From the IMG/VR virus record IMGVR_UViG_3300032103_000073: a stretch of 64,000 nt of DNA; one strand, given 5' to 3'. The translations under genes and the position numbers were made by a program. The notes under the pieces are model-generated. The model had not been told where the DNA came from. It ran no database searches and worked only from the letters and a program-made list of their open reading frames with translations. The number at the start of each line of letters is the position of its first letter. Positions within the stretch are counted from its first letter, which is position 1. Positions 37,811 through 54,432 of the stretch are shown piece by piece. The DNA comes from a virus. Taxonomy: Duplodnaviria; Heunggongvirae; Uroviricota; Caudoviricetes.

Positions 37811-37850
37811 ACAAAAACAAAAACCCGCATAATGCGGGTTTTTGTTTTAT
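37811..37850. terminator. bidirectional rho-independent terminator
   Basis: A-run, cccgcataatgcggg stem, T-run. Confidence 0.8.
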
Positions 37851-38725: not shown

Positions 38726-38779
38726 ATGTTTATTTAATCAATAGAGCCTGTAAGCTAGAAAAGTCTAATAAATATTTGC

Positions 38780-41240: not shown

Positions 41241-41269
41241 AAGTAAGTGTATAATTAACTTTATTTATT

Positions 41270-42196: not shown

Positions 42197-42205
42197 GGAG
42201 ATACT

Positions 42206-42565: not shown

Positions 42566-42645
42566 CCCTTATTTGTAAAATAGAGTAAACGACTAAGTCG
42601 TTTACTCAGTAGGCAAGCATAAAATAAAAGATTGCAATGTAGACT

Positions 42646-43389
42646 ATGAGCACACGCTTACCTGTATACGCCCCTTTAAATAATAGATTTACGTTTGATG
42701 CTGCTCGTTTAATTGCAGAAATTAACAGTCTAATTGCAAATCAAGCAGAAGAAAGAACATTACCTTTTGAAAACGGTCGTAGCGTATATGACCCTGCTGG
42801 CCGGCTGCAAATCGCAAGCGATGCCGACTTAAACAACACTACGAAATATGAAATAAACGAACACAGACAACGAGTTAAAATCCCTGGCAAGATTAAAACT
42901 TACCATGTTTTTAACTTAACCTATTTGCCTGAAGAACAAGACAGTCTAATAGATATATATCGAAATAACGATCCTGAGAAAAAGATTTTTTGGCATACTT
43001 ATAAAAAGCCCTTTACGTGGCGTAAAGAATTAGAAAATACTTACATTAAACAGTGCGTGGAACAATTTCCGTGGGAGTATATACAAGGTGTTAGACTAAT
43101 ACATATGTCACCGCCTAGTATTGGACAAATTCATAGAGATAGTCACCCCAGAGATAATCTACGCTATTTTAGAGAAGGTTTTGCCAGTATCAGTTTTAAC
43201 ATAGACTCGGGCAATGGAGTTCTTAAGTATTTAGACGCAGGCGAAGAAAAGCAAGTTAATAATAATGTTAAAATATTTCACTTTGATGACAGTGTTGCCC
43301 ATGGTGTCACTGCAATTTCATCTCCACGCTACCAACTGAGAATGTGGGGGAAATTATCTGTTCCGTATTTGGATTTATTAAATGTTTAA
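42646..43389 (+). CDS. Fe(II)/2OG dioxygenase-like paralog
   Basis: QIHRDSHP ... VAHGVTA (HxD...H). Confidence 0.4.
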   Translation: MSTRLPVYAPLNNRFTFDAARLIAEINSLIANQAEERTLPFENGRSVYDPAGRLQIASDADLNNTTKYEINEHRQRVKIPGKIKTYHVFNLTYLPEEQDSLIDIYRNNDPEKKIFWHTYKKPFTWRKELENTYIKQCVEQFPWEYIQGVRLIHMSPPSIGQIHRDSHPRDNLRYFREGFASISFNIDSGNGVLKYLDAGEEKQVNNNVKIFHFDDSVAHGVTAISSPRYQLRMWGKLSVPYLDLLNV

Positions 43390-43933
43390 AAAACTTGATA
43401 ATTCTTTTTTAAATTTAGAACTAGATTGGAAGTCGTTTATAACAGATGATATATTTACAGAATATTATTCTAAAAAACGCGGCGGCGGTAGCTTCTTTTA
43501 TACCCTGCCTTGTAGTAAGAAAGACTTCTTAAATCTGCAAAAAAAGAATATTTTTACTATCGAACCAACTTTTATCCAGTACTGCGAATTTACCGGTCCC
43601 GGTTTGGTTACTCCGCATATTGACCGAGGGTCAACTGTTGCATTGAACTTTTACCTGGAACCGCAAGGTGATCGCACAATTTTTTATGAAACTACTTTAG
43701 ACTGTGACAGTGGTACCGGGTACCACGGGGATAAATCAAAGTTGTCATATGTAACAGACTTGAGCACCTTAAAAGAAATAGGATCTTTTGTTGCTGCACC
43801 ACTTGACGTTTATTTGCTAGACGTTAACAAATTGCACGGGATAGAAAAAGTAAACGACCTGCCGCGAACAATGATTACCTTCAGGTGGTTTAAACATTCG
43901 TATGAAGAAGTGTTATCAAGCCTGTCCTTATAA
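43382..43933 (+). CDS. Fe(II)/2OG dioxygenase-like paralog
   Basis: TPHIDRGSTVALNFYL ... KLHGIEK (HxD...H). Confidence 0.4.
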   Translation: MFKKLDNSFLNLELDWKSFITDDIFTEYYSKKRGGGSFFYTLPCSKKDFLNLQKKNIFTIEPTFIQYCEFTGPGLVTPHIDRGSTVALNFYLEPQGDRTIFYETTLDCDSGTGYHGDKSKLSYVTDLSTLKEIGSFVAAPLDVYLLDVNKLHGIEKVNDLPRTMITFRWFKHSYEEVLSSLSL

Positions 43934-43938
43934 AATAA

Positions 43939-43967
43939 TTGACACAAAGGCTAAATAGAAGTACAAT
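43939..43967 (+). promoter_or_regulatory. promoter (TTGACA-N17-TACAAT)
   Basis: upstream of tRNA-Thr. Confidence 0.6.
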
Positions 43968-43975
43968 AACAACAT

Positions 43976-44052
43976 TGCTGGATTAGCTCAGTTGGTAGAG
44001 CACTCGCCTTGTAAGCGAAAGGTCGTCAGTTCGAACCCGACATCCAGCACCA
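43976..44052 (+). tRNA. tRNA-Thr (TGT)
   Basis: cloverleaf; loop CTTGTAA; CCA encoded. Confidence 0.8.
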
Positions 44053-44086
44053 AAGTTAAATTTTTTATCTATTTTGCCAAAAGATA

Positions 44087-44115
44087 TTGACACAAGAGAT
44101 AAATAAACTTATAAT
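44087..44115 (+). promoter_or_regulatory. promoter (TTGACA-N17-TATAAT)
   Basis: consensus hexamers. Confidence 0.6.
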
Positions 44116-44164
44116 AGAAGCTTACGTTAACAAAGTTAGCGTAGAAATTTTTAGGAATAACCAA

Positions 44165-44314
44165 ATGCAAACGATTGCGAAACATTTTAGTCAGTTTAGT
44201 TCACAAGCCAAACAGGTGGCAATGCCCACCTATTGGTGTGCTCTAGGCTCTGGCTCTAATGATCGCACACCGGAGATTAGGTCAGGGTTCCATGAAGGAT
44301 CAGGTTACGCATAA
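44165..44314 (+). CDS. hypothetical small protein
   Basis: ATG 44165 after the promoter (track ORF begins at 44087). Confidence 0.35.
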   Translation: MQTIAKHFSQFSSQAKQVAMPTYWCALGSGSNDRTPEIRSGFHEGSGYA

Positions 44315-44337
44315 GTAATCAAAGAATTCAAAAGGAA

Positions 44338-44370
44338 CCCTGGAACTAAAAACTCCAGGGTTTTTGTTTG
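44338..44370 (+). terminator. rho-independent terminator
   Basis: ccctggaactaaaaactccaggg stem plus T-run. Confidence 0.8.
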
Positions 44371-44379
44371 CTGAAAAGG

Positions 44380-44760
44380 AAAAATGATAGACACCGAGAC
44401 AAGAATTAAACAGCAAGCAGAATGGTTGAAGTTGCATACTTTAACTCAGGAGCAAACGAAAGTTTTGATCCAGAACAAGTTAAGGCGTGCAACAGAGATG
44501 CATACTGCTTTAAACAAGCGAGAGGTGCTTTGTAAGCTCCGTTAAAATCGCAAACGTGGGATAGGGAACGCGACCCTGCAGACACGCAAAACACTGCTAG
44601 TAATGTGGGCGGCCTACCCGATGGTAAGTCTATGGTGAGAACGTAGATGTGTAAAACGGTAGAGTATTAAAGTGTATTAGGTCCCACACCAGGCAATTGG
44701 AGCCGAAATGTCGTCTAGTATACTTTAATACACACATTCGAAAGAGTGTGTTAACAAATA
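44380..44760. other. ORF-free structured region (candidate ncRNA)
   Basis: no ORF of 60 aa or more; multiple inverted repeats (e.g. acacacattcgaaagagtgtgt). Confidence 0.35.
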
Positions 44761-44761
44761 T

Positions 44762-44839
44762 GTACGGGTGGCAGAGAGGCCCAATGCAACGGTCTGCAAA
44801 ATCGTAAAACCGTCGGTTCAAATCCGACCCCGTACTCCA
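44762..44839 (+). tRNA. tRNA-Cys (GCA)
   Basis: cloverleaf; loop CTGCAAA. Confidence 0.65.
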
Positions 44840-44845
44840 AATTTA

Positions 44846-44923
44846 GCGTGGTTAGTGTTTAACGGCCTAGCACGACTGGCTTCCACCCAGTAAGAAAGAG
44901 TTCGAATCTCTTACCCCGCACCA
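44846..44923 (+). tRNA. tRNA-Gly (TCC)
   Basis: loop CTTCCAC; one acceptor mismatch. Confidence 0.6.
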
Positions 44924-44928
44924 AATTT

Positions 44929-45004
44929 ATCCTGTTAGTTTATCGGTTTAGAACAGTGGCCTTTCAAGTCGCAGAGACGGGTTCGATTCCCGTACAGGAT
45001 GCCA
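44929..45004 (+). tRNA. tRNA-Glu (TTC)
   Basis: loop CTTTCAA. Confidence 0.7.
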
Positions 45005-45011
45005 AGTTAGT

Positions 45012-45085
45012 AGGGGTATAGTGTAATGGTAGCACAACACACTTTGACTGTGTCGGTCTAGGTTCAAATCCTGGTACCCCCGCCA
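45012..45085 (+). tRNA. tRNA-Gln (TTG)
   Basis: strong similarity to the E. coli tRNA-Gln scaffold; loop CTTTGAC. Confidence 0.75.
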
Positions 45086-45092
45086 ATTTTAT

Positions 45093-45170
45093 CTCTGCGT
45101 AATGTCAATCTGGTAGACGGCCTGATCTGGAGTCAGGAGGCTGTAGGTTCGAATCCTACCGTGGAGACCA
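45093..45170 (+). tRNA. tRNA-Pro (TGG)-like, atypical (C33)
   Basis: anticodon arm CCTGA-TCTGGAG-TCAGG with C at position 33. Confidence 0.5.
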
Positions 45171-45177
45171 ATTTTAT

Positions 45178-45216
45178 ATCTCCGTAGCTCAATCAGGCAG
45201 AACACCGGTTTTGTAT
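45178..45216 (+). pseudogene. truncated tRNA 5' fragment (acceptor, D-arm and anticodon 5' half)
   Basis: ATCTCCGTAGCTCAATCAGGCAGAACACCGGTTTTGTA; no matching 3' half; resembles the 5' half of the tRNA at 49363. Confidence 0.55.
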
Positions 45217-45225
45217 AAATAAGCT

Positions 45226-45855
45226 ATGAACTATATAATTTACAAGACTACAAATCTGCTAAACGGTATGTACTACATTGGTTCTCATCAAACCAATGAC
45301 TTAAATGACGGATACTTAGGTTCGGGTAAACATTTAAAAAGAGCCATTACTAAGTACGGCAGAGAAAATTTTAAATTTGAAATTCTTTACTTTCTTCCCT
45401 CAAAAGAGGAAATGTTTAAAGTAGAACGAGAAATCGTAAATGAATCTTTTGTGCAAGATCCGCTAACGTATAATTTAAAAATCGGTGGTAGCGGAGGGAA
45501 TCCTGGTATTATCGGAGCTTTTTCTGGAAGAAGGCATACCGAAGAAACTAGAGAAAAAATGAGAGTTTCGAGGTCGAAACAAGCGCCCATGTCAGAAACA
45601 AGTAGACAAAAACTTTCAGAAAATAACTGGTCTAAAAGAGATCCCGGCGCGCATAGAGAACACATGCGTAAGATAGCATCTATGCCACGGTCGGAAGAAC
45701 ATAACAAAAAAGTCGCCGAAGCAAACATAGGCAAAACAATAGTTAATAATGGTATTATTGCTAAAAGAATAGATAAGAAAGATTTGAGCTACTATGAAGA
45801 TAGTGTTGGAAAAGAGGCGCAATGCCTCGTAAGAAATAATATGCCCTTAAGATAA
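45226..45855 (+). CDS. GIY-YIG homing endonuclease (Seg-like)
   Basis: IIYKTTNLLNGMYYIGSH...KRAITKYG GIY-YIG module plus basic C-terminal DNA-binding region. Confidence 0.75.
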   Translation: MNYIIYKTTNLLNGMYYIGSHQTNDLNDGYLGSGKHLKRAITKYGRENFKFEILYFLPSKEEMFKVEREIVNESFVQDPLTYNLKIGGSGGNPGIIGAFSGRRHTEETREKMRVSRSKQAPMSETSRQKLSENNWSKRDPGAHREHMRKIASMPRSEEHNKKVAEANIGKTIVNNGIIAKRIDKKDLSYYEDSVGKEAQCLVRNNMPLR

Positions 45856-45915
45856 CGGCAGTCGTCAGGTCTCCAAAACCTTGAAGTCGCGGTTCGAATC
45901 CGTGAGGGTATGCCA
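45841..45915 (+). tRNA. tRNA-Trp (CCA)
   Basis: acceptor ATGCCCT/AGGGTAT; loop CTCCAAA; overlaps the last 15 nt of the endonuclease ORF. Confidence 0.65.
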
Positions 45916-45922
45916 ATTTAAT

Positions 45923-46014
45923 GGAAAGTAATGCAGCGGGGATGGTCCTGCGACTGGCCTTGAAAACCAGGTTCTCAGAAATGGGATGGGGTTCGACTCC
46001 TCTGCTTTCCGCCA
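45923..46014 (+). tRNA. tRNA-Ser (TGA)
   Basis: type II; loop CTTGAAA; resembles E. coli tRNA-Ser. Confidence 0.75.
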
Positions 46015-46184
46015 ATTTTGAGACTGCTCTACGGGCACTGCAATGAACGTAGACAGGTTGTGTGGTGTGTTGGCAGCACAGCGGAAGCGAGTACCTAACA
46101 GAAAAGTTTGCAGACCGAGTAAGTTAGCGAAAGGGGAGCAGGGTTAGGTTCGAATCCTATCACATTTACTCAAATCTAATATAT
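46015..46184 (+). other. unassigned tRNA-like/structured RNA with a T-arm (GGTTCGAATCC)
   Basis: no ORF; T-arm motif at 46143-46159; no consistent acceptor pairing found. Confidence 0.3.
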
Positions 46185-46278
46185 AGTGAGTTGACAGAGT
46201 CTGGCTAATTGTGCCTCCCTGCTAAGGAGTGCGTCCTTGAAAGAGGGCACAAGGGTTCGAATCCCTTGCTCACTGCCA
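46185..46278 (+). tRNA. tRNA-Ser (GCT)
   Basis: type II; loop CTGCTAA; long variable arm. Confidence 0.75.
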
Positions 46279-46310
46279 AGTTGTCGAATGTTAAGATAAA
46301 TAAATTCATG

Positions 46311-46335
46311 CGGCTGTAGCTCAGTTGGTAGATTT
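46311..46335 (+). pseudogene. truncated tRNA 5' fragment (acceptor plus D-arm)
   Basis: GCGGCTGTAGCTCAGTTGGTAGA followed by unrelated sequence and the HNH gene. Confidence 0.5.
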
Positions 46336-46376
46336 ATGCGATAGAGTATAAATACAGTATAGGAGATACTCTACCA

Positions 46377-46763
46377 ATGAAAGCAATTTGCTTACAATGT
46401 AATAAAGATTTTGAATACGGGCATAGTTCCACTGGGAAGTTTTGTAGCAACCAGTGTAGCGGCTTATATAAGAAAACAGAACATAAACAAAAGTTCTTTT
46501 CAGGTTTGTTAAAACGAATTGAACGACCTACAGCAAGGAAATATCTTGCTGAGGAAAGAGGATATAAATGTGAAGTATGTAGCGTAAGTGATTGGCAAGG
46601 CAAGCCAATCACTTTACATGTAGATCATATAAATGGCGATCCGTCAAACGATCACCCAGGTAACTTAAGGTTAATTTGCCCTAACTGCCATAGTCAAACA
46701 GAGTTTTTGGGTGCGGCAAATAAAGGTAGAGGACGCGGTTCATTAGGAATCGCAAAGTATTAA
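46377..46763 (+). CDS. HNH homing endonuclease
   Basis: CxxC ... HVDHINGDPSNDHPGNLRLICPNCH (HNH with zinc ligands). Confidence 0.75.
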   Translation: MKAICLQCNKDFEYGHSSTGKFCSNQCSGLYKKTEHKQKFFSGLLKRIERPTARKYLAEERGYKCEVCSVSDWQGKPITLHVDHINGDPSNDHPGNLRLICPNCHSQTEFLGAANKGRGRGSLGIAKY

Positions 46764-46838
46764 GCAGGATTAATTCAGTGGTAGAATGTCTCGTTGCCAA
46801 CGAGAATGTCGTCGGTTCGAACCCGACATCCTGCTCCA
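46764..46838 (+). tRNA. tRNA-Gly (GCC)
   Basis: loop TTGCCAA; begins one nt after the HNH stop. Confidence 0.8.
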
Positions 46839-47061
46839 AATAACACGGCTCCTATCATTTGCTCATTGAGGAATGCTTGGGAGTTCTTTTATAAACTTCT
46901 AATGAACGCTCTTGCAGATGCCATGCTGGTAAAAAACTTCATGTCAAACTTTAGCGTATACAAATCGAGAACAAAGATATAGCAAACATCATTAGTCTCT
47001 GTCATAGACAAGTGGATTAATAACCCGCCTTTAGTTATAGAGTCGTATGTTTGCATTAAAA

Positions 47062-47138
47062 TATTTATCATGGGTCTTTAACTCAGTTGGATAGAGTGCC
47101 AGTCTTCGAAACTGGAAGTCGTGGGTTCGAATCCTGCA
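47062..47138 (+). tRNA. tRNA-Arg (TCG)
   Basis: loop CTTCGAA. Confidence 0.7.
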
Positions 47139-47163
47139 AGACCCGCCAATTATAAATATTAAC

Positions 47164-47760
47164 ATGATACTAAAGTACAGAGATCCAAGATTTTATTCTG
47201 TAGATTCGTTGAAGTGCTGGAAAAATGTCAACGTTCCTTTAAATGTTGTTCATCCCGATGCAACTATAGACATTAGATCAAATAGTTTGAAAGAAATATT
47301 GCTTCCATTATCTGCAATAGATCCCAATTTTAAATTATGGTTAGCAGAACTAGGATTAGAAATTTCCCTAGTAAGATTGTTTATTGCTAGTGCAAATTAC
47401 GAGTATACAAAACATGTAGATCGTCAAACATTTAACGACCAGTCAGTGGCGTTAAATTTTGCCTTCGATGACACTGGCACTGTTTTTTCATGGCATAATT
47501 TAAATAAAGATGGCAGGATCGAAGTTACAAAAAATAAAAACAATATCCCGATTTGGAATTTTTCCAACTGTGCTACTGTTTTGGCAGAAGAAATTAAACA
47601 TCGAGAAAATCAGCCGTTTTTAGTCAACACTGGATATATTCATTCTTTAAAAGTTGGCAATCAGGACAGACATTGTTATAGTTATTTCCTGCGGAAAGCC
47701 GGTACAGCCGTTCCGTTGCAATGGGATGATGCAATAATAGCATTTGACAGATTTATATAA
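47164..47760 (+). CDS. Fe(II)/2OG dioxygenase-like paralog
   Basis: KHVDRQ...LNFAFDD...NTGYIHSL; paralog of 52449. Confidence 0.45.
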   Translation: MILKYRDPRFYSVDSLKCWKNVNVPLNVVHPDATIDIRSNSLKEILLPLSAIDPNFKLWLAELGLEISLVRLFIASANYEYTKHVDRQTFNDQSVALNFAFDDTGTVFSWHNLNKDGRIEVTKNKNNIPIWNFSNCATVLAEEIKHRENQPFLVNTGYIHSLKVGNQDRHCYSYFLRKAGTAVPLQWDDAIIAFDRFI

Positions 47761-47764
47761 TTAA

Positions 47765-47839
47765 CTCGCTGTAGTTCAATGGATAGAACAGTTCTCTCCT
47801 AAAGAATAGATCCAAGAATCGAACTTGGTGGCGAGACCA
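47765..47839 (+). tRNA. tRNA-Arg (CCT)
   Basis: loop CTCCTAA; unusual T-loop AATCGAA. Confidence 0.6.
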
Positions 47840-47853
47840 TAAAGGAGATCGTA

Positions 47854-48027
47854 TGAAAACACTTTACTTTGAAAATATTCGCAACCGCGAACGCTTTTAT
47901 TGTAAAAACGCTCGAGACATACATATGATCGACGGCATTGAATACATGAAAGTTTTTAGACTGGGAACGCAACGCGAAGTTCTTGTTAAACGAGAATCTC
48001 TCAAGAAAGTTGCAGAGCCCAAGTAAG
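47854..48027 (+). CDS. hypothetical small protein (57 aa)
   Basis: SD AAAGGAG plus ATG. Confidence 0.35.
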
Positions 48028-48101
48028 GCTGCTATAGTATAATGGTATTACATACCCTTGGTAAGGGTAAAACACAAGTTCAATTCTTGTTAGCAGCACC
48101 A
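48028..48101 (+). tRNA. tRNA-Thr (GGT)
   Basis: loop TTGGTAA. Confidence 0.8.
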
Positions 48102-48105
48102 TTAA

Positions 48106-48134
48106 TTGACACAAAATAGAGAACATGCTACAAT
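48106..48134 (+). promoter_or_regulatory. promoter (TTGACA-N17-TACAAT)
   Basis: drives leader A and the tRNA-like at 48347. Confidence 0.6.
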
Positions 48135-48139
48135 AGATA

Positions 48140-48346
48140 CAAGTTAAGAAATTAACTGTTTTGATAGATGTTGTTGGGAGCGATCCCCCACAACAGAGAT
48201 GTAAGGTCCTCAACTGCGAGGCGTTAGCAACATTTATCATCTTGTTCTTTAAAAATTTGCAGTGTTGTTTAGGCTGATTGACGGCAATCGAAAAGCAGTC
48301 TGAGTCTTGTCCCCGGCGCACCGCTTTGCCGAGCGTACCGCAGGGA
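48140..48346 (+). other. structured leader A (candidate small RNA), homologous to leader B
   Basis: shared 5' box AGAT(A/G)(C/T)AAGTTAAG(A/C)AATTAACT and a GGGA(A)GCGATC hairpin. Confidence 0.4.
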
Positions 48347-48420
48347 GTCTCTATAGTGTAAGGGTAGCACGCCAGCTTGTAAGAGTTGGAGGATTGGGTT
48401 CGAATCCCAATAGAGTTTAA
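48347..48420 (+). tRNA. tRNA-Gln-scaffold paralog with an 8-nt anticodon loop (TTGTAAGA); no CCA
   Basis: D-arm and T-arm nearly identical to the tRNA-Gln at 45012; stem CCAGC/GTTGG encloses 8 nt. Confidence 0.4.
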
Positions 48421-48453
48421 CAAGACATCAGCCTAAACAACATTGCAAATAAG

Positions 48454-48482
48454 TAGACACAAATTCTTGTGTTTGCTATAAT
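48454..48482 (+). promoter_or_regulatory. promoter (TAGACA-N17-TATAAT)
   Basis: drives leader B and tRNA-Glu. Confidence 0.5.
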
Positions 48483-48489
48483 AGATGTA

Positions 48490-48641
48490 AGTTAAGCAAT
48501 TAACTTACTTGCTCTTTAAAAAGTTCATCCAACATATAAGTCGCTGGGAAGCGATCATTATATGCAAACACATTAGATCAGCTACCGGCGAAGGGAGTAA
48601 CCGGCGATTGTTAAAGTGAGTGTGTTTACATATAATGTTTT
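48490..48641 (+). other. structured leader B (candidate small RNA)
   Basis: homologous to leader A. Confidence 0.4.
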
Positions 48642-48716
48642 ACTCGGTTCGTCTATCGGTTAGGACGACAGCCTTTCAAGTTGTAAAGACGGGTTCGATT
48701 CCCGTACCGAGTACCA
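48642..48716 (+). tRNA. tRNA-Glu (TTC), second copy
   Basis: loop CTTTCAA; T-arm identical to the copy at 44929. Confidence 0.7.
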
Positions 48717-49362
48717 AAAATAATCGTAGCGGTTGATGAGACTGATTAAACAAGTCAACTGAATAATCTCCCACAGATCAGTTGTAAAGGAGAACGTCTA
48801 AACACTAAGGCAATGCTTAGTACTATAGTAGATGGAAACCGACCCCTGTCAGAGCGCGGGGGCTTTTACAGTGTTTATAGTAGAGTAGGAAGTATCCGAA
48901 GCGACTTAGTTAGGATGCAGCCAACAGACCAACATTGACCGCGTAGATAGTCCGGACTATCGCTTGAAACGGAAGATGCGTCCACCCCCTGCCCTGCTTT
49001 ACTATAAACACTGTGAACGATGCGAAAGTAAGTCGGTCCAGTAGGGTAAGGAAAAGTATTGCTAGCGGAAAGAGCTGCCGAAGGACAGAAGTTAGTCCCG
49101 CATGGCAATGACTAATGCGGATAGGCTAACGCCGTGTAATCCTTCAAGAATTTGCTAACACAGGGTGGATTTACATGCCGATGTGTTTAATGTTGTTTAA
49201 AACCGAGCAGTGTGCCTTATCAGCGCAATAGTTAGACTCTACCTGGCAACAGCAAACCAAATGTAAGATAGTTGCTATCGCGTCCTGCAGGTAAGTTAGC
49301 AACCGTAACATCACGGACGGGCGTATTTTATGCCGTGTAATCAAATGCGACTCAGTAATTTA
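48717..49362 (+). other. about 640-nt ORF-free structured region (candidate ribozyme or ncRNA; group-I-intron-like P7 elements)
   Basis: AGATAGTCCGGACTA (48947-48961) and GTTAGTCCCGCATGG / GACTAATGCGGATA about 140 nt downstream; G/C-rich helices. Confidence 0.35.
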
Positions 49363-49437
49363 GCTCTGTTATTTCATGTGGTAGAATACCGGTTTTGTAG
49401 TCCGGAGAGGGCAGTTCAAGTCTGTCACGGAGCACCA
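49363..49437 (+). tRNA. tRNA with anticodon arm CCGGT-TTTGTAG-TCCGG (TGT, Thr-like; U:U closing pair)
   Basis: cloverleaf with CCA; anticodon assignment uncertain. Confidence 0.5.
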
Positions 49438-49503
49438 TATTAAAACACATTACTAAGAGTCCAGGTTCATAGCGTGGCCTAGTGTGTTTTAATATGTTTA
49501 TGT

Positions 49504-49581
49504 CCGGGTGTAGCGCAGTCTGGTTAGCGCATCTGCTTTGGGAGCAGAGGGTCGTGAGTTCGAATCCCACCACCCGGACCA
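49504..49581 (+). tRNA. tRNA-Pro (TGG)
   Basis: loop TTTGGGA. Confidence 0.75.
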
Positions 49582-49590
49582 AGTTTATGT

Positions 49591-49668
49591 TGGGGTATAG
49601 CTTAGTTTGGCCTAAAGCAACGGTCTTTGAAATCGTGATCACTGGTTCGAATCCAGTTACCTCTGCCA
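49591..49668 (+). tRNA. tRNA-Gln (TTG), second copy
   Basis: loop CTTTGAA; U1:U72. Confidence 0.6.
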
Positions 49669-49724
49669 AGTTTTAGGAGAATCGCGTAAGCGTATTCTTA
49701 ATCGACCCAGTATCAGGGCGTCCT

Positions 49725-49752
49725 GACATTAGTATTTTTTGGGGGCAGCAGC
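49725..49752 (+). terminator. hairpin plus T-run (weak terminator)
   Basis: tcagggcgtcctga ... tttttt. Confidence 0.35.
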
Positions 49753-49827
49753 GGGCTGCGGTGATCCCTTGCAAGGATCATGACTAGAAGGGTTCAACTC
49801 CCTCGGCCTCCACCAAACAATGCCCGG
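49753..49827 (+). tRNA. tRNA-Ala (TGC)-like
   Basis: G3:U70; loop CTTGCAA; atypical D region and 8-nt variable loop; T-loop TTCAACT. Confidence 0.5.
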
Positions 49828-49833
49828 TTAATT

Positions 49834-49907
49834 AAATGGTATAATACACCCCTGATAAGGGTGAATCACTGGATCGTAACCAGTACTGGGTACCAATGTT
49901 AGTTAGA
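49834..49907 (+). tRNA. tRNA-Ile (GAT)
   Basis: loop CTGATAA. Confidence 0.7.
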
Positions 49908-49948
49908 GCATTCTGTTGATCTATGATAAATAATATTATGGAGACAAT

Positions 49949-50542
49949 ATGTTTTGTAAATTTTGCAACAAAGAATGTAAGAATAAGAATAGTCTAGTAA
50001 ACCATGAGCGTTTATGTCCAGCGAACCCTGACAGAAAATATGTGTCACACACGCTAGGTAAAAACGGTCATGTCGCTTGGAATAAAGGACTGTCCAAAGA
50101 AACTTCTAGATCTTTGGCACAGTTAAGTGAAACACATAAGCGAAACGGTCACGGTGGCTGGTCTAAGAAAGCTAGTTCCAACGGAGGCAAAGCAGGTGGC
50201 GGATATCGTGAAAATGCAGGAAGAAGTAAGAAATTCAAAGTAGTCGATTCTTTCGACAAAACGGTGTGCTTGCAAAGCACATACGAACTTAGATGCAGTC
50301 GACTATTGAATGAGTTGGGCATTAAGTGGATAAGACCATCAGCATTAAAGTATGATAGTAAAAATTATTTTGCTGATTTTTATTTACCGGAGTATGATTT
50401 GTATCTAGATCCAAAGAATAATTATAAAGCAAAATTGGATACTGACAAAATCAATAAAGTAAAAGAACAAAATAATGTAAGAGTTGTGATTCTCACTGAG
50501 GATCAGTTGACTCAAGATTATATAAAAAGCCTTTGTAGTTAA
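49949..50542 (+). CDS. zinc-finger protein, possible homing-endonuclease-like
   Basis: N-terminal CKFC...HERLC zinc finger; basic middle region; inserted between tRNAs. Confidence 0.35.
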   Translation: MFCKFCNKECKNKNSLVNHERLCPANPDRKYVSHTLGKNGHVAWNKGLSKETSRSLAQLSETHKRNGHGGWSKKASSNGGKAGGGYRENAGRSKKFKVVDSFDKTVCLQSTYELRCSRLLNELGIKWIRPSALKYDSKNYFADFYLPEYDLYLDPKNNYKAKLDTDKINKVKEQNNVRVVILTEDQLTQDYIKSLCS

Positions 50543-50602
50543 ATGGTATAACGGTCGCTTGATAAGCGATTATTACAAGTTCAATTCTTGTCGAAGGCAC
50601 CA
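50529..50602 (+). tRNA. tRNA-Ile (GAT)-like, second copy
   Basis: loop TTGATAA; overlaps the preceding ORF's 3' end. Confidence 0.55.
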
Positions 50603-50841
50603 AGTTTTGTAGCGTTAGCAAGAGAAAAGTACCAATTCGTGTAGCTGGCCAGCGAAAGAGGAGGTAAAACAGGAGGGGGTTCAACTCCCCACCGCGGGTA
50701 GCCATGCGGTAGCTGGAATGGAGCATCTGACCAAGTATCCCAAGTAACAAGTCCTGGAAGAACTCGACGTAAGGAAGTCCGGCTCTGTACGTCTAAACAC
50801 TAGTGATAAACCTGAGGACGCTAGGCTACAAATTAATTTAT
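50603..50841 (+). other. ORF-free structured region with a tmRNA-type T-arm motif (GGGGGTTCAACTCCCC)
   Basis: motif at 50667-50682; no CCA end. Confidence 0.3.
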
Positions 50842-50917
50842 TCCCCAGTAGCACAGCGGTAGTTGCGCCTGACTGTTAATCAGGATGTCCGTGGTTCGAT
50901 CCCACGCTGGGGAGCCA
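50842..50917 (+). tRNA. tRNA-Asn (GTT)
   Basis: loop CTGTTAA. Confidence 0.75.
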
Positions 50918-50971
50918 ATTAATAAACACATTGCCGAGCGACGAAGGAAATGAGTAGTGTGTTTTTTAATT

Positions 50972-51061
50972 GGAGAGTGTTCCCGTCAGCGGCCTGTAAA
51001 GTCGTTGTCCTTAATTTGGCGGGTGGCTGGACAGATGGTTCGATTCCTTCACTCTTCACCA
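50972..51061 (+). tRNA. tRNA-Tyr (GTA)-like, atypical (reduced D-arm, about 28-nt variable arm)
   Basis: acceptor GGAGAGT/ACTCTTC; anticodon arm GCGGC-CTGTAAA-GTCGT as in E. coli tRNA-Tyr. Confidence 0.45.
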
Positions 51062-51066
51062 ATTTT

Positions 51067-51141
51067 GGCCTTGTCATATAGTGGTTATTATACCGGTCTG
51101 TCTAATCGGATATCGGGGTTCGATTCCCCGCAAGGTCGCCA
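51067..51141 (+). tRNA. tRNA-Asp (GTC)
   Basis: loop CTGTCTA (U37). Confidence 0.6.
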
Positions 51142-51148
51142 GTTTAAT

Positions 51149-51225
51149 GCGTCTGTAGCTCAGTTGGATAGAGTACTTGGCTACGAACCAAGGGGTCGTG
51201 GGTTCGAATCCTGCCAGACGCGCCA
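51149..51225 (+). tRNA. tRNA-Arg (ACG)
   Basis: loop CTACGAA. Confidence 0.8.
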
Positions 51226-51230
51226 AATAT

Positions 51231-51307
51231 GCCAATGTAGCTCAGACGGTAGTAGCAGCGGATTGAAAATCCGCGTGTCGGTGGTTCGATTCCACTCGTT
51301 GGCACCA
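51231..51307 (+). tRNA. tRNA-Phe (GAA)
   Basis: loop TTGAAAA. Confidence 0.8.
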
Positions 51308-51453
51308 GTTAAGGGATAGACGGTACGATGAGTCCCACACAACCTAGCATTGGGTCTAGCAATGCGAAACGGCAGATCGGTTGAAGTGGTTGTATAAACT
51401 CTTGTATGCGAGACAATCCGGTAAGGTCTGCGGGAACAGACGAGCTGGGCTCC
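51308..51453 (+). other. ORF-free structured spacer (candidate ncRNA)
   Basis: no ORF; G/C-rich hairpins. Confidence 0.3.
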
Positions 51454-51530
51454 CAATCTATATGCCTTGGTGACGGAATTGGTATACGTGCTTGACTCAA
51501 AATCAAGATTCTGTGGGTTCGAGTCCCACC
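51454..51530 (+). tRNA. class-I (short variable arm) tRNA with Leu anticodon CAA
   Basis: arm CTTGA-CTCAAAA-TCAAG; 4-nt variable loop. Confidence 0.55.
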
Positions 51531-51531
51531 C

Positions 51532-51560
51532 AAGGTACCAGTTGACACAAAATAGCAGAT
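51532..51560 (+). promoter_or_regulatory. promoter (TTGACA-N17-TATAAT) plus SD and 7-codon mini-ORF (MKRSGKR)
   Basis: AACAGGAG then ATG 51585 and stop 51606. Confidence 0.55.
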
Positions 51561-51681
51561 GCTATATAATTTAATTTTAAACAGGAGTATGATATGAAAC
51601 GTTCAGGTAAACGATAGTGTCATCCTAGACCCCGTAATTGGTCTGGGTTGGCACGTAAAAGAAAATGTAATTTACGACTAA

Positions 51682-51755
51682 CCCTTCGAGATGTTATGGT
51701 TGCATAGCGGACTCTTAATCCGACAAGTGACGGTTCAAATCCGTCCGGAGGGACC
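51682..51755 (+). tRNA. tRNA-Lys (CTT)
   Basis: loop CTCTTAA; 4-bp anticodon stem. Confidence 0.6.
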
Positions 51756-51761
51756 AATTAT

Positions 51762-51835
51762 GGGATTGAAGCTTTAAGGTGAAGCAACGGACTTTTAATC
51801 CGTAGATCTGGGATCGTTGGCCCAGCAGTCCTACC
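51762..51835 (+). tRNA. tRNA-Lys (TTT)
   Basis: loop CTTTTAA; atypical T-loop. Confidence 0.65.
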
Positions 51836-51956
51836 ATATAAAAACACATTATTAGTTCAGTAGAGAACGATAACAGGCCATCTTTTGGTAGATCAGTATG
51901 TTATAGGACAACAGATGAAATTTCTGTTATAGTGTGTTTCTATATGGTATTTTTAT
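51836..51956 (+). other. spacer with hairpin and T-runs (terminator-like)
   Basis: aacagatgaaatttctgtt hairpin. Confidence 0.3.
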
Positions 51957-52032
51957 GCAGCGTTTAGTGGAGTGGTTACCATACTTGTCTGTGAAACAAG
52001 TGAGAACGGTTCGAATCCGTAACGTCTGCCCA
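51957..52032 (+). tRNA. tRNA-His (GTG) with G-1 and a bulged U in the acceptor 3' strand
   Basis: loop CTGTGAA; G-1:C73. Confidence 0.55.
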
Positions 52033-52227
52033 AACAATATTTTTTGTTAAGCTGTAGTTTAAATGAAAGCCTGAGTGTTTCCCGACGGGGATTAGCAAGG
52101 GACGCGGTAAGTTAGTAGACAAAAACGACAATGGGCCCTGCGTTGTTGGCGGCTACTGATGATGACAATAGAATAACGTCCGCGGAGGACGAGGTGCTCA
52201 GAGTTGAGCCAGCTTTACAAAGAATAT
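52033..52227 (+). other. ORF-free structured region (candidate ncRNA)
   Basis: 195 nt, no ORF. Confidence 0.3.
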
Positions 52228-52303
52228 GGTGATGTAGCTCAGTTGGTAGAGTACCTCCTTCATACGGAGAGTGTCGGCGGTTCAAGTCCGTCCATCACCA
52301 CCA
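52228..52303 (+). tRNA. tRNA-Met (CAT), elongator-like
   Basis: loop TTCATAC. Confidence 0.7.
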
Positions 52304-52310
52304 AATATAA

Positions 52311-52437
52311 TCTGTAGGTGCTGAAACGGTAGACAGCAGACGGCAGTCTGTGTAAAGGGTTCGAATCCCTTGGAAGTCCGCAAGACTTTTAGTATGGTAC
52401 TATTGGTGGTTCGAGTCCATCCCTGCAGACCAAATAA
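52311..52437 (+). ncRNA. about 125-nt tRNA-like element (acceptor CTGTAGG/CCTGCAG, CCA, two T-arm-like hairpins)
   Basis: 7-bp terminal pairing, D-arm-like helix, internal AAGGGTTCGAATCCCTT and GGTGGTTCGAGTCCATC. Confidence 0.4.
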
Positions 52438-52448
52438 ATAAATAGTCA

Positions 52449-53051
52449 ATGGAACAAAAATTTTTATTTGCAGAAAAGTCAAAATGTTTTAGACACATCA
52501 CTATGCCGTTTACCTTTATTCAACCGCATGTTCCTATCGATCTGACTAGCATTACTTCTCCTAAGGAAATACACATTAATATCAATTCAGTAGACGCCTG
52601 TTTTATAACATGGTTGCATAATCTAGGTTTGTATTCACTCCATCCTAGGTTATTTGTTACTCCGCCTGGGACAAAATACAATATCCATGTTGATATTTTG
52701 TTCCCGCGAGAAAATACTGCTACTTATTTAAATTTTCCGTTTAATGACGCTGGTTCATTTATGAGGTGGTTTAATTTAAAAAACGAAAAAAATGCTTATA
52801 TAACAACTACTAGTGTAGAAGACAAAAAATTTCAAGTTATTAATGCAAACGAAGATGATTGCTCTGTTATCGAAATTATGCACGCGCCCGGCAATTCTCC
52901 TATATTAGTTAATGCCGGTTACTTACATGATTTAACGAATCCGAGTAATTTCAGACATTGTTGGAGTTTCCCTTTGCTAAAATTAATCGACAACACACGA
53001 ATAAATTGGGACGAAGCAGTGGAGATTTTTTCCTCTTACATTAAAAATTAA
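52449..53051 (+). CDS. Fe(II)/2OG dioxygenase-like paralog
   Basis: IHVDIL...LNFPFNDAG...NAGYLHDL. Confidence 0.45.
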   Translation: MEQKFLFAEKSKCFRHITMPFTFIQPHVPIDLTSITSPKEIHININSVDACFITWLHNLGLYSLHPRLFVTPPGTKYNIHVDILFPRENTATYLNFPFNDAGSFMRWFNLKNEKNAYITTTSVEDKKFQVINANEDDCSVIEIMHAPGNSPILVNAGYLHDLTNPSNFRHCWSFPLLKLIDNTRINWDEAVEIFSSYIKN

Positions 53052-53574
53052 CAGGTAAGTCAAATATTCGAATCAGTAGCATCACTCGCATATTTGGAGA
53101 TTTGTTTTCTACTCTATGCGGAACTTTAACCGATAGCAAATAAGGCACAGAAGTTTCGTGAGATTCTATTAACTTACAATCATCCGGGTAGTACCTGAAA
53201 AAATGATGAGTTTTTCCTTTATTTTCTACTGTTACTACGTGCGGGTTTGCTAGCGTGTTATAAAAATTTATCCAAGTATTTTCGCACCCAGAAATGGGAA
53301 TGTTTAAACTATATCGGTAAGGACCGCTGTCCATATGATAATTTCCGTTGTCATATCCCATTGTTACATTTATTGCAACCTGGCCTACGCAATGGTTGGG
53401 TAATTTTAGATCATTAATTACTTTTTTGATAGACGGAAGTGTTAAAAAAACATCTTTGTTATTTTCTATATAAGTTAAATTAGTAGAAAGCAAAAGGTGT
53501 TTGGGTATAGACATCAATACTTCGTTTTGTATGTCTGTGAGATTTTCTATATGTATTTCTCTAAAAGGAGCCAT
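53041..53574 (-). CDS. Fe(II)/2OG dioxygenase-like paralog
   Basis: YHMDSGPYRYSLNIPISGCENTWINF...VPHRVEN; paralog of 18783. Confidence 0.45.
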   Translation of the reverse strand: MAPFREIHIENLTDIQNEVLMSIPKHLLLSTNLTYIENNKDVFLTLPSIKKVINDLKLPNHCVGQVAINVTMGYDNGNYHMDSGPYRYSLNIPISGCENTWINFYNTLANPHVVTVENKGKTHHFFRYYPDDCKLIESHETSVPYLLSVKVPHRVENKSPNMRVMLLIRIFDLPVNF

Positions 53575-54195
53575 ACTAGTATTTATAAAATATCTCGCAG
53601 ATCAAGTTTATGTGGCGTGTATAGGTCATACACGATTTCTGGCAGTTGAAGTGACAGGAGTAATTATCCTGAGAACGATACTGGTGCTGGGAGGTAACGT
53701 TGCCCGGCGAGAAATCCGAGATTGTTTGCGTTCGAGTCGCAAACGCTACACACAAAGTTTCTTGCAAGAAGAACAGAGGTACGGTGGTCCTACTTGAGTG
53801 GGGACTATAAAAGCCGACAAACGCCTGGGGTACAACTCCATACGCTCAGCCAAATAAGGCGGATTCTGTTTCTCCGTAACAGCCCTAGCAGGCACCTGAA
53901 AAGGACTTGGGACAGCGTATTGCTACATCGACGACGAAATGTCGAGCTGGAGAATGTAACCAGCATCCATAGTCAATAACATTCATCATTGGTAGATAGC
54001 CTTAAGCGGTTGGCAAACCGGGACTACACTACGAAGCAGCTTAGCCAGCGCGATGAAAAGACCCTTTACGTCGAGAGTGTTATTGACTATGGTCCACAAG
54101 GGTGGTATGTAGGCAACGTGGATTTGCCGAGGACCGGGATTCCTTAACTAGCCAACAACTAGTGCCATATAGTATATTGGTATTACATTTATAAT
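53575..54195 (+). other. about 620-nt ORF-free structured region (candidate ncRNA or ribozyme)
   Basis: no ORF of 100 aa or more; AGGTAACGTTGCCCGG; AACCGGGACTAC / CATAGTC elements. Confidence 0.35.
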
Positions 54196-54270
54196 GTCCG
54201 GTTATTTCAGCGGTAGAATACTTCCATGACACGGAAGAGGTCACTGGTTCGATCCCAGTACCGGACACCA
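54196..54270 (+). tRNA. tRNA-Val (GAC)
   Basis: loop ATGACAC. Confidence 0.7.
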
Positions 54271-54271
54271 A

Positions 54272-54300
54272 TTGACACAAAATCACAGAACAACTATAAT
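54272..54300 (+). promoter_or_regulatory. promoter (TTGACA-N17-TATAAT)
   Basis: upstream of the tRNA at 54304. Confidence 0.6.
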
Positions 54301-54303
54301 AAC

Positions 54304-54380
54304 AACTAATAATGCCCCGGTGGTGGAATTGGTAGACACGCTACGTTGAGGTCGTAGCATTTGCAGGTTCGAGTCCTGTC
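54304..54380 (+). tRNA. class-I tRNA with Leu anticodon GAG (G37)
   Basis: 5' half resembles E. coli tRNA-Leu (TGGTGGAATTGGTAGACAC) but the variable loop is only 4-5 nt. Confidence 0.55.
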
Positions 54381-54432
54381 CAGGGTACCATTGAATGTAA
54401 AGTTAAATACATATGTAAACAAAGGAGTAATC

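Follow-up and report, generated by a model that had tools for sequence, protein, structure and literature searches.

Conserved, Probably Non-Decoding tRNA-Like RNAs and Irregular tRNA Genes in the tRNA Island of a Caudoviricetes Genome

The tRNA Island and Its Irregular Elements

The IMG/VR virus record IMGVR_UViG_3300032103_000073 (Duplodnaviria; Heunggongvirae; Uroviricota; Caudoviricetes) provided the stretch of 64,000 nucleotides (nt) analyzed here, which is called the window throughout. An island of transfer RNA (tRNA) genes spans 37.6-54.4 kb of this phage-like genome on the + strand and holds about 35 tRNA genes in total; the genome is that of a large, uncultivated phage. ARAGORN predicted 32 of them (37652-54390, all on the + strand), other evidence added several, and the Rfam tRNA model (RF00005, gathering threshold 29 bits) gave 30 matches in the window. 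According to ARAGORN, the genes for the Pro, Thr, Glu, Gln, and Ile tRNAs are duplicated. The ordinary tRNA genes are spaced 5-10 nt apart, and six near-consensus sigma-70-type promoters are scattered within the island. The G+C content of the window is ~41%, nearly all genes lie on the + strand, and the open reading frames (ORFs) read normally under code 11. An earlier inspection of the sequence, hereafter the original prediction, flagged five structurally aberrant tRNA-like genes in the island. The features found at these places are:

45093-45170, + strand, tRNA-Pro(UGG) paralogue with C33 (ARAGORN Pro(tgg); Rfam tRNA 35.8 bits; CCA encoded)
48255-48450, + strand, conserved structured RNA of ~200 nt (inverted repeat, fold, five homologues)
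48347-48417, + strand, cloverleaf domain within the ~200-nt RNA (ARAGORN "tRNA-???" with anticodon gtaa; Rfam tRNA 46.4 bits)
50972-51061, + strand, 90-nt gene derived from tRNA-Tyr(GUA) without a D arm (direct reading)
51957-52032, + strand, tRNA-His(GUG) with G-1:C73 (ARAGORN His(gtg); Rfam tRNA 44.4 bits)
52312-52432, + strand, 121-nt RNA derived from tRNA-Leu (alignments A1 and A4, covariance model R1)

The core of the finding is two conserved, structured RNAs, the 121-nt RNA and the ~200-nt RNA, that probably act as tRNA mimics and do not decode. The flagged elements probably form three classes, i.e., irregular decoding tRNAs, non-decoding tRNA-derived RNAs and the Tyr-like gene, and our confidence in any specific role is much lower than in these class assignments. 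Given that two other sequencing runs yielded assemblies that agree with the window at every base over 43974-49549 and 49544-51182, and that four of the five flagged features have homologues in other contigs, the features are not artefacts of a single assembly. Runs SRR4101184 and SRR4101185 are from the same population. Megablast of 44700-52500 against isolated phages returned single-tRNA matches only and no close isolate. A search for related loci with the neighboring protein 52449-53051 as query found one distant locus, which lacked tRNAs, and a metagenome scan with a 17-mer gave 114 matches, most of which had arisen by chance in coding DNA and were removed by their context. No ribozyme, riboswitch, GOLLD or ROOL was matched by Rfam in the island at E values up to 5-10.

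A Conserved 121-nt RNA Related to tRNA-Leu

Neither ARAGORN nor the Rfam tRNA model calls the 121-nt RNA a tRNA, and its sole match is to the tRNA-Sec model at 19.4 bits, below the threshold of 47 bits. For this place (52311-52437), the original prediction had described a 125-nt element with two T-arm hairpins and a CCA, closed by a perfect 7-bp acceptor-like helix. Both hairpins (52355-52371 and 52405-52421) and a terminal ACCA are indeed present, and seven base pairs do close the element; the helix is not perfect, as one of its pairs is U.G. The parts, all on the + strand, are as follows:

52311, U-1
52312-52318, 5' strand of the acceptor stem
52320-52336, Leu-type D arm
52337-52350, stem with a GGCA tetraloop
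52355-52371, T-arm 1
52372-52390, hairpin A
52391-52401, hairpin B
52405-52421, T-arm 2
52422-52428, 3' strand of the acceptor stem
52429-52432, A73 and CCA

Homologues were gathered with three independent sequence patterns, one each for the D loop, hairpin A and T-arm 1. The covariance model R1 found exactly one copy per locus (131-154 bits) in 24 loci or contigs that represented 15 distinct sequences. These loci are always inside tRNA arrays, and their neighbors vary. One of them is a 4.5-kb contig that had been binned with a Polynucleobacter genome, a weak hint at a host.

The alignment revealed that 99.8% of the cells were paired and that 11 pairs had undergone compensatory double changes, compared to 1-4 in the slid controls; none of 500 shuffles reached these values. 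The covarying pairs comprise five of the seven in the acceptor stem, five of the six in the stem at the anticodon position, and one in T-arm 2. From its 5' end, the RNA consists of U-1, the 7-bp acceptor stem, U8, G9 and a 3-bp D stem with the loop AAACGGUAGA. The anticodon position is occupied by the covarying 6-bp stem, which is capped with GGCA or GGCG and followed by GKYAA; 14 of the 15 variants have this tetraloop, and the remaining one has a 7-nt loop. Next come an invariant T-arm 1, hairpin A, which is invariant apart from a single change of C-G to U.G, and hairpin B, whose loop is YGG. T-arm 2 abuts the 3' strand of the acceptor, which leads to A73 and CCA, so that the acceptor/T branch is of the canonical 7/5 type. 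CCA is kept in 22 of the 24 copies and replaced by CUA in the other two.

After the true copies, the best matches of R1 were type II tRNA-Leu genes (43, 41, and 37 bits) and tRNA-Leu of T4 (36 bits). The D arm of the 121-nt RNA (UGCUGAAACGGUAGACAG) and that of a phage tRNA-Leu (UGGUGAAAUGGUAUACAC) follow the same pattern, U8-G9-NNG-AAAN-GG-UAGA-C with a 3-bp D stem, and the RNA has A73. These matches and the shared D-arm pattern show that the 121-nt RNA is derived from tRNA-Leu, with no anticodon left at the canonical position. Of the two readings that the original prediction had offered for this element, an intron-containing tRNA does not fit, because no excision gives a 7-nt loop at the canonical anticodon position; the insert sits in the variable region, and no intron family (group I or other) was matched by Rfam in the RNA or the window. 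The second reading, a tRNA-derived noncoding RNA, is supported.

Leucyl-tRNA synthetase (LeuRS) of Escherichia coli relies on A73 and on D-arm and tertiary features and not on the anticodon. For RNase P, U-1 and an acceptor/T stack of 12 bp are suitable features. It is thus plausible that the 121-nt RNA is processed by RNase P and leucylated.

A Conserved ~200-nt RNA with an Exchangeable Cloverleaf

The gene flagged at 48347 had been described as a copy of the tRNA-Gln scaffold with an 8-nt anticodon loop and no CCA, either a frameshift-suppressor tRNA or a pseudogene. Direct reading agrees with the description: eight nucleotides make up the loop TTGTAAGA (48377-48384), and the 3' side runs on as TTTAAC without a CCA into the helix P2 of a larger RNA. 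The D arm matches that of tRNA-Gln 45012 at 18 of 19 positions. The closing stem has only 5 bp and is extended by a conserved G.U and a U.U that belong to the scaffold of the larger RNA. Folding indicated that the loop in the window can form a 7-bp stem capped by a GUAA tetraloop. The features of the larger RNA, all on the + strand, are as follows:

48106-48134, promoter TTGACA-17-TACAAT (11 of 12 matches, TG extension)
48106-48157, promoter and leader hairpin AAGTTAAGAAATTAACT, which start the transcription unit holding the ~200-nt RNA
48255-48278 with 48427-48450, P1, a 24-bp duplex
Inside 48276-48289, invariant segment ACGGCAAUC
48304-48310 with 48420-48426, P2 (GUCUUGU/ACAAGAC)
48311-48345, P3 hairpin

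Folding of 48250-48455 (206 nt) gave -82 kcal/mol (z = -8.1) and a structure composed of P1, P2, P3, and the cloverleaf; single-sequence folding energies of the individual tRNA-like genes were uninformative (z between -0.4 and -2.1). The same arrangement of promoter and leader is found in the contigs L016, L129, and L002, and a further promoter lies at 48454 of the window.

Five distinct members of the family were identified, in the window, L016, L129, L130 (identical to L132), and L131, the last three through a pattern in the flanks. In L016, the same flanks with few substitutions surround a wholly different, Leu-like cloverleaf that ARAGORN calls Lys. This 138-kb contig (JACCDT010081801.1) also contains the 121-nt RNA. 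The alignment of the five sequences contains 65 pairs that are 96.6% paired, and 16 of them show compensatory changes, compared to 1-5 in the slid controls; again, none of 500 shuffles reached this number. The covariation extends over P1 and all four arms of the cloverleaf, while P2, P3, and ACGGCAAUC are invariant. The scaffold is ~95% conserved, and the cloverleaf differs in each phage. The five cloverleaf loops (UUGUAAGA, CUUUACCG, UGUGGAA, UGAGUCU, and CCUUUGA) all differ in sequence and two of them in length, and they have neither a common sequence nor a U33/R37 pattern. The cloverleaf of L130 also has an 8-nt loop (ARAGORN "ttac").

Neither reading of the original prediction for 48347 holds. 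A pseudogene is at odds with the place of the cloverleaf as one domain in a larger, conserved RNA whose helices covary, and a frameshift-suppressor tRNA with the 5-bp closing stem, the lack of CCA, the unconserved loop and the location of the domain inside P2 and P1. Comparison of the homologues suggests that 48347 is not a free tRNA but an exchangeable tRNA-shaped domain in a conserved RNA with its own transcription unit, because the promoter and leader are its own, the scaffold is conserved and the cloverleaves differ. Selection appears to act on the tRNA shape, not on the anticodon.

A broader alternative is that the flagged elements are specialised decoding tRNAs, with 48347 as a quadruplet-reading (+1 frameshift) or suppressor tRNA, the 125-nt element as a tRNA expanded by an intron or otherwise that decodes once processed, and the C33 Pro and Tyr-like genes as recoding devices. 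The 8-nt loops of two embedded cloverleaves (in the window and L130) fit this alternative, as do hairpin A of the 121-nt RNA, which can be drawn as a 6-bp stem with the 7-nt loop YCGCAAG followed by a variable-arm-like hairpin, and the absence from the Pro paralogue of G37, the site of the m1G37 modification that restrains +1 frameshifting. We consider it very unlikely. The five loops have no sequence or U33/R37 pattern in common; the closing stem of 5 bp plus G.U and U.U lies within a larger helix and lacks CCA; the loop at 48347 closes into a GNRA tetraloop; and hairpin A would carry C33 and be unstacked on the D stem. Moreover, Rfam detected no group I or other intron family, and the ORFs of the window are normal under code 11.

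Another alternative is that the elements are RNA-processing signals, in which tRNA-like folds as sites for RNase P and RNase Z and long duplexes as sites for RNase III define the ends of neighboring tRNAs and other RNAs within polycistronic transcripts. Plant mitochondrial t-elements and mascRNA at the 3' end of MALAT1 are parallels. The many long near-perfect intergenic hairpins of 17-25 bp (I1-I6 and I8), weak Rfam matches of the mascRNA type, and the position of the cloverleaf between P3 and the 3' strand of P2, where a cut would free a 5' RNA of ~115 nt, all fit such signals. Signals of this kind, however, need neither a 95% conserved scaffold around an exchangeable cloverleaf nor the invariant three-hairpin insert, A73, and CCA of the 121-nt RNA, and the ordinary tRNAs of the island, 5-10 nt apart, do without such aids. 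This alternative is improbable, and a conserved RNA that presents an exchangeable tRNA-shaped domain remains our reading of the locus.

Irregular, Probably Decoding tRNAs

The Rfam score of the Pro gene at 45093 (35.8 bits) is the second lowest in the window. Its anticodon loop at 45126-45132 reads TCTGGAG, which places C at position 33, as the original prediction had stated. In addition, the gene has A37 in place of the G37 of other Pro tRNAs, which is the m1G37 site, and an extra nucleotide before the D stem. Alignment of all Pro(UGG) genes from the related contigs revealed a paralogue family, represented in the window, L106, L016, and L011_12070, in which A37 and the extra nucleotide are found throughout; C33 occurs only in the window and L106, whereas L016 and L011_12070 have U33. 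Between the window and L106, the acceptor pair 6:67 has changed from C-G to U-A, a compensatory change indicating that the RNA is still under structural selection. The 7-bp acceptor, 5-bp T stem, discriminator, and encoded CCA are in place, and a canonical Pro(UGG) gene at 49504 (66 bits) coexists with the paralogue. Based on these comparisons, 45093 is probably a functional paralogue in which C33 is a young substitution on an older A37 background. Changes in the loop have been proposed to help phage tRNAs to escape anticodon nucleases (PMC10264068), and by analogy such an escape is a plausible reason for those of the Pro gene.

When the His gene at 51957 is drawn in the canonical register, the pairs 4:69, 5:68, and 6:67 are mismatched. 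With T69 bulged, the acceptor pairs fully and the T stem has 4 bp (ACGG/CCGT); the minimum-free-energy fold picks this form, which corresponds to the His tRNA with a bulged acceptor nucleotide of the original prediction. The anticodon loop has 7 nt with U33 and a purine at position 37. The homologue in L086 is identical, and that in L016 has the same acceptor strands together with compensatory changes in the D and anticodon stems. Because the His genes of more distant relatives (L082, L007, L013, and L011) conserve U4.U69 and U5.U68, with covarying flanking pairs and a short T stem, the irregular middle of the acceptor is a trait of the clade.

For neither gene had the original prediction gone beyond noting a deviation; the sequence comparisons show that both variants are kept by selection. 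Most likely, the two tRNAs still work in translation, where they would read CCN and CAY codons after normal processing and charging.

Several further tRNA genes of the island are irregular as well. A tRNA-Ser(UGA)-like gene of 92 nt at 45923-46014 is missed by ARAGORN and the Rfam tRNA model, and its sole match is tRNA-Sec at 34.7 bits. By direct reading it fits an 8/4 branch cleanly (acceptor GGAAAGTA/TGCTTTCC, T stem GGGG/CCTC). Close to identical copies lie in L082 and in L002 (10012-10101), the latter with a compensatory change in the acceptor, and Pseudomonas phage PHB09 contains a stretch without annotation (OK040171, 14398-14488) that shares 90% identity with the gene. The tRNA-Ala(UGC) gene at 49741-49815, for which ARAGORN places the anticodon at position 30 and which is under the Rfam tRNA threshold, combines G3:U70 with a miniature D hairpin (GCAGC-GG-GCUGC) and an acceptor branch that is 8/4-like. 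This architecture recurs with covarying stems in L013, L031/L083, and L130, the last of which also has a normal Ala gene. A tRNA-Arg(CCU)-like gene (47765-47836) is found by Rfam (45.7 bits) and missed by ARAGORN; its T loop is AATCGAA (A54), and a homologue lies at 11134-11208 of L002. Bacterial tRNA-Leu belongs to class II, while the Leu(CAA) and Leu(GAG) genes of the island (51464-51540 and 54314-54390) have 77 nt, a short variable region and a class I-like layout; relatives have Leu genes of both 77-80 and 83-87 nt. The tRNA-Gly(UCC) gene at 44846-44923 (34 bits, aligned to model positions 5-66 only) is structurally weak. In related phages, and not in the window, ARAGORN calls tRNA-Ile (tat) for genes of 90-95 nt whose variable arm is long: L002 6142-6233, L003 68-157, L066 2384-2473, L092 118-209, and L129 14037-14131. 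Their counterpart may be the allo-tRNA(UAU) group of Mukai et al.

A tRNA-Tyr-Derived Gene without a D Arm

The gene at 50972 is the only Tyr candidate in the window. ARAGORN and the Rfam tRNA model miss it, and its sole match is tRNA-Sec at 26.5 bits, below threshold. The original prediction had described it as a Tyr(GTA)-like tRNA of 90 nt with a minimal D-arm and a variable arm of ~28 nt, and direct reading leads to the same description. The gene has a 7-bp acceptor, A73, CCA, and a T stem with one U.U; its anticodon arm is GCGGC-CTGTAAA-GTCGT, in which the 7-nt loop includes U33 and purine 37. Only 10 nt (50979-50988) are found in the place of the D arm, and the variable region has 28 nt (51006-51033). 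The gene can also be drawn with an 8-bp acceptor (G8-C65) and a 4-bp T stem. A possible pseudoknot between CCCG in the D position and CGGG in the variable loop was rejected, since 4 bp in an 18-nt loop are within chance and there are no homologues.

The anticodon arm is identical to that of canonical phage Tyr tRNAs of 82-85 nt in the contigs L124-L128, to which the acceptor and the T loop are similar. Relative to these genes, 10 nt replace the D arm and 28 nt the variable arm of 11 nt. A pattern search of IMG/VR found no Tyr homologue with a long variable region; searches with the anticodon-arm pattern returned canonical Tyr tRNAs only, and exact-protein look-ups returned identical assemblies only. 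The gene is probably a lineage-specific rearrangement of a normal phage tRNA-Tyr, in which the D arm was lost and the variable region expanded. It is possible, if doubtful, that it works as a D-armless tRNA and is not a recently damaged gene.

Damage could be proposed for all flagged elements, which would then be decaying pseudogenes, i.e., functionless debris of duplication and of rearrangement by homing endonucleases. The island does contain 5' fragments of tRNAs that abut endonuclease ORFs (45181-45225 and 46310-46340) and duplicated Pro, Thr, Glu, Gln, and Ile genes, and the architecture of the Tyr-like gene has no homologue, the close relative L016 having a normal 87-nt Tyr gene of a different lineage. 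For the set as a whole, however, decay is an unlikely explanation. The Pro and His genes and the 121-nt and ~200-nt RNAs are conserved across diverged contigs with compensatory changes that keep their helices, and the 15 variants of the 121-nt RNA are paired at 99.8%. In the Tyr-like gene, too, the acceptor and anticodon arms are free of stem-breaking point substitutions, and A73 and CCA are kept. The covariation in the four conserved elements speaks strongly against pseudogenes.

Other Genes and Elements in and near the Island

Other genes identified in the window include:

403-1641, ClpX (best relatives in jumbo phages, ~55% identity)
25624-26241, ClpP
37000-37617, TilS-like PP-loop ATPase (PF01171, 1.5e-28)
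45226-45855, GIY-YIG homing-endonuclease ORF
46377-46763 and 54433-54993, HNH homing-endonuclease ORFs
49949-50542, endonuclease-like ORF

The TilS-type ATPase gene lies directly upstream of a tRNA gene with a CAU anticodon (37652-37728), which suggests that the phage encodes a lysidine synthetase together with the tRNA-Ile2 on which it would act. In or beside the island, five similarly sized ORFs (42646-43389, 43382-43933, 47164-47760, 52449-53051, and, on the - strand, 53041-53574) each contain the motif H-x-D ... H, as is typical of 2-oxoglutarate/Fe(II) oxygenases, and had neither a Pfam nor a PHROG match. As L086 lacks the pair 52449-53574, these ORFs come and go between strains.

The 5' fragments 45181-45225 and 46310-46340 lie directly against the starts of the GIY-YIG ORF (45226-45855) and the HNH ORF (46377-46763), respectively. 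One resembles a Thr(UGU) gene as far as its anticodon loop; its counterpart comprises an acceptor sequence and a D arm. Because no matching 3' halves were found downstream, the fragments look like remnants of endonuclease-driven insertion and not like split or intron-containing tRNAs.

Long near-perfect hairpins occur between tRNA genes at 44664-44731, 48556-48637, 48865-49017, 49436-49496, 51832-51949, and 53967-54092. Their arms of 17-25 bp are separated by 27-103 nt, and several share AAACAC/GTGTTT. They may be processing stems of the RNase III type that enclose small RNAs; a comparable stem-enclosed T-arm element is found at 2380-2500 of L002. Two stretches of ~600 nt within the island, 48717-49362 and 53600-54195, contain no long ORF on the + strand, show a certain excess of structure (z = -1.8 and -3.1, respectively) and had no Rfam match. 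L086 retains the latter at 92-95% conservation, and in L106 a part of this stretch is located after the 121-nt RNA. Both may be large noncoding RNAs. T-arm-like hairpins are also found outside the called tRNAs at 46020-46175 (GGTTCGAATCC), 50605-50715 (GGGTTCAACTCCCC), and 53718-53745 (GCGTTCGAGTCGC), the first with a possible 7-bp acceptor-like pairing GAGTAAG/TTTACTC and no CCA. In L124, an unrelated phage contig, a gene for transfer-messenger RNA (tmRNA; tag ANDQVYALAA) lies inside a tRNA array (8093-8480).

Possible Roles of the Two RNA Families

Neither the 121-nt nor the ~200-nt RNA matched an Rfam 15 family beyond generic tRNA; distant blastn searches of isolated phages found nothing, and literature searches returned no description of either RNA. 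In the mechanism that we favor, both RNAs would be processed and recognised as tRNAs on their acceptor side and would act as mimics. The 121-nt RNA would be cut from a co-transcript with a Met-tRNA by RNase P and 3' trimming, would be recognised by enzymes that read the acceptor branch or the elbow, probably including LeuRS, and would serve as a tRNA mimic and not as an adaptor. For the ~200-nt RNA, transcription would start at its own promoter; the 24-bp terminal duplex, which is of the type cut by RNase III, would close the molecule, and the conserved scaffold (P2, P3, and ACGGCAAUC) would display the exchangeable tRNA-shaped domain.

Several points weigh against this interpretation. We observe the RNAs, their conservation, secondary structures and promoters, and the tRNA-Leu ancestry, and we infer everything beyond the secondary structure, i.e., processing, charging and the mimic role. 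For the 121-nt RNA, the search patterns in the D loop, hairpin A and T-arm 1 partly impose the invariance at these sites, each of which is also invariant in the matches found through at least one other pattern. As the central hairpins are invariant, their pairing is unproven, except for the C-G to U.G change in hairpin A. Following the tRNA-Sec match of 19.4 bits, hairpin A can be drawn with the 7-nt loop YCGCAAG (C33, GCA) and hairpin B as a type-II-like variable arm, the secondary structure being the same in both drawings, and on this model the 121-nt RNA may decode through the hairpin A arm. The ~200-nt family has only five distinct members, in which P2 and P3 are too conserved to show covariation. 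Finally, no homologue with the architecture of the Tyr-like gene was found in IMG/VR.

Both RNAs might alternatively be anti-defence decoys or sponges, which would present an acceptor branch or elbow to tRNA nucleases, modifying toxins or sensors and thereby spare the tRNA pool. Defences that cleave tRNAs and are countered by phage tRNAs include PARIS, retrons, and anticodon nucleases. That phage tRNAs counter tRNA-cleaving host defences (PMC10264068) agrees with this role, and so do the tRNA shape kept by both RNAs after loss of the anticodon, their location in a tRNA island, and the exchangeable cloverleaf, whose hypervariable loops resemble a fast-evolving interface. However, neither RNA has a linked gene for defence or anti-defence, the support is purely contextual, and the lack of variation in the central hairpins of the 121-nt RNA points to a single fixed partner instead of an arms race. 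As an account of the two RNAs, decoys are therefore a tentative and rather improbable reading.

A bolder proposal, which we likewise regard as unlikely, is that the 121-nt RNA is a new class of phage RNA, a leucine-accepting mimic that is unable to decode and yet handled like a tRNA by RNase P, the CCA enzyme, LeuRS, and perhaps EF-Tu. It would serve as a sponge or decoy against host immunity directed at tRNAs, or would donate aminoacyl groups or act in regulation, with the ~200-nt RNA as a second new class, a conserved scaffold with interchangeable tRNA-shaped domains whose loops evolve fast. In a still bolder variant, hairpin A (YCGCAAG) would be a working anticodon arm that turns the RNA into an adaptor of Leu identity for Cys codons.

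Phage tRNA genes are now viewed as weapons against tRNA-cleaving defences, beyond a fix for codon usage. If they are indeed stable RNAs, both families would be tractable new examples of tRNA mimicry in DNA phages, and the intact EF-Tu- and LeuRS-type branch of the 121-nt RNA raises the question of what role a charged non-decoding tRNA could have during infection. Standard annotation misses or mislabels the families, as ARAGORN returns "???", Pro or Lys (in relatives), or nothing, and tRNA counts and "suppressor" calls in genomes of huge phages need structural checking.

Comparison with Known Systems

The cloverleaf of the window and its homologue in L130 share an 8-nt loop with the frameshift suppressors of the sufD/sufJ type. 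The latter, however, are ordinary tRNAs with a 7-bp acceptor and CCA, whereas 48347 has a 5-bp stem, no CCA and loops that are not conserved and is a domain of a larger RNA. A closer likeness in architecture is found in the Y RNAs (YrlA, RF02553; Yrn1 of D. radiodurans), in which a long stem of the 5' and 3' ends carries a tRNA-like module and which occur near tRNA arrays in phages, too. As in the ~200-nt RNA, the terminal stem of Yrn1 continues from the acceptor position (PMC4201824). The order of the parts differs, with the T arm, a closed acceptor hairpin and the D arm in YrlA and the normal D, anticodon, and T arms in the ~200-nt RNA, which also lacks the GNCGAA(N0-1)G motif and a bulged helix for Ro binding. 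The Rfam YrlA model did not match the ~200-nt RNA, and no TROVE/Ro gene was found among the 20 ORFs of the window that were scanned with Pfam. Identity with YrlA or other Y RNAs was rejected on these grounds of topology, motif and the lack of a Ro gene in the ORFs scanned.

The tRNA-like domain of tmRNA resembles the 121-nt RNA in having an acceptor stem, a T arm, and CCA and no anticodon, and tmRNA is charged by a synthetase that ignores the anticodon. In contrast to tmRNA, the 121-nt RNA has no mRNA-like frame (there is no room for a tag ORF), no pseudoknots, and a full D arm. ARAGORN found no tmRNA in the window, and the sole Rfam match, to permuted tmRNA (23 bits), is a T-arm artefact.

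The rnaC and rnaD genes of T4 (species 1 and 2) also encode small stable RNAs in a phage tRNA cluster beside a GIY-YIG endonuclease; rnaC ends with a T-arm-like hairpin and rnaD in ACCA. They were rejected as homologues of the 121-nt RNA, as R1 matches only the tRNAs of T4 and nothing on L120 4909-5172. Unlike the 121-nt RNA, they have neither a double T arm nor a Leu-type D arm, and the similarity is one of analogous location only.

With its acceptor, anticodon and T arms and without a D arm, the Tyr-like gene resembles the D-armless tRNAs of mitochondria (e.g., metazoan mt-tRNA-Ser(AGY)), from which it differs in its bacterial/phage setting and its 28-nt variable region. We know of no functional D-armless tRNA in bacteria or phages.

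Irregular (8/4, 9/3, and bulged) tRNAs and allo-tRNAs of bacteria and phage tRNA clusters, with acceptor/T branches other than 7/5, were described by Mukai et al. (2017, PMC5389517), who reported (8/4) tRNA-Ser and tRNA-His in phage tRNA gene clusters. In the window, Ser(UGA) 45923 fits the 8/4 form, Ala(UGC) 49741 is 8/4-like with one mismatch, and His has a 4-bp T stem. The published (8/4) tRNA-His lacks G-1 and has A73 or U73, whereas the His gene of the window has G-1:C73 and one bulge. No counterpart of the 121-nt or ~200-nt RNA was found in the text of this paper as far as read. Pro 45093 and His 51957 probably belong with the irregular (8/4-type) tRNAs of phage clusters. Irregular tRNAs of phage clusters and the stable tRNA-like RNAs of T4 are known kinds, and the Pro and His genes are new members or variants of the first.

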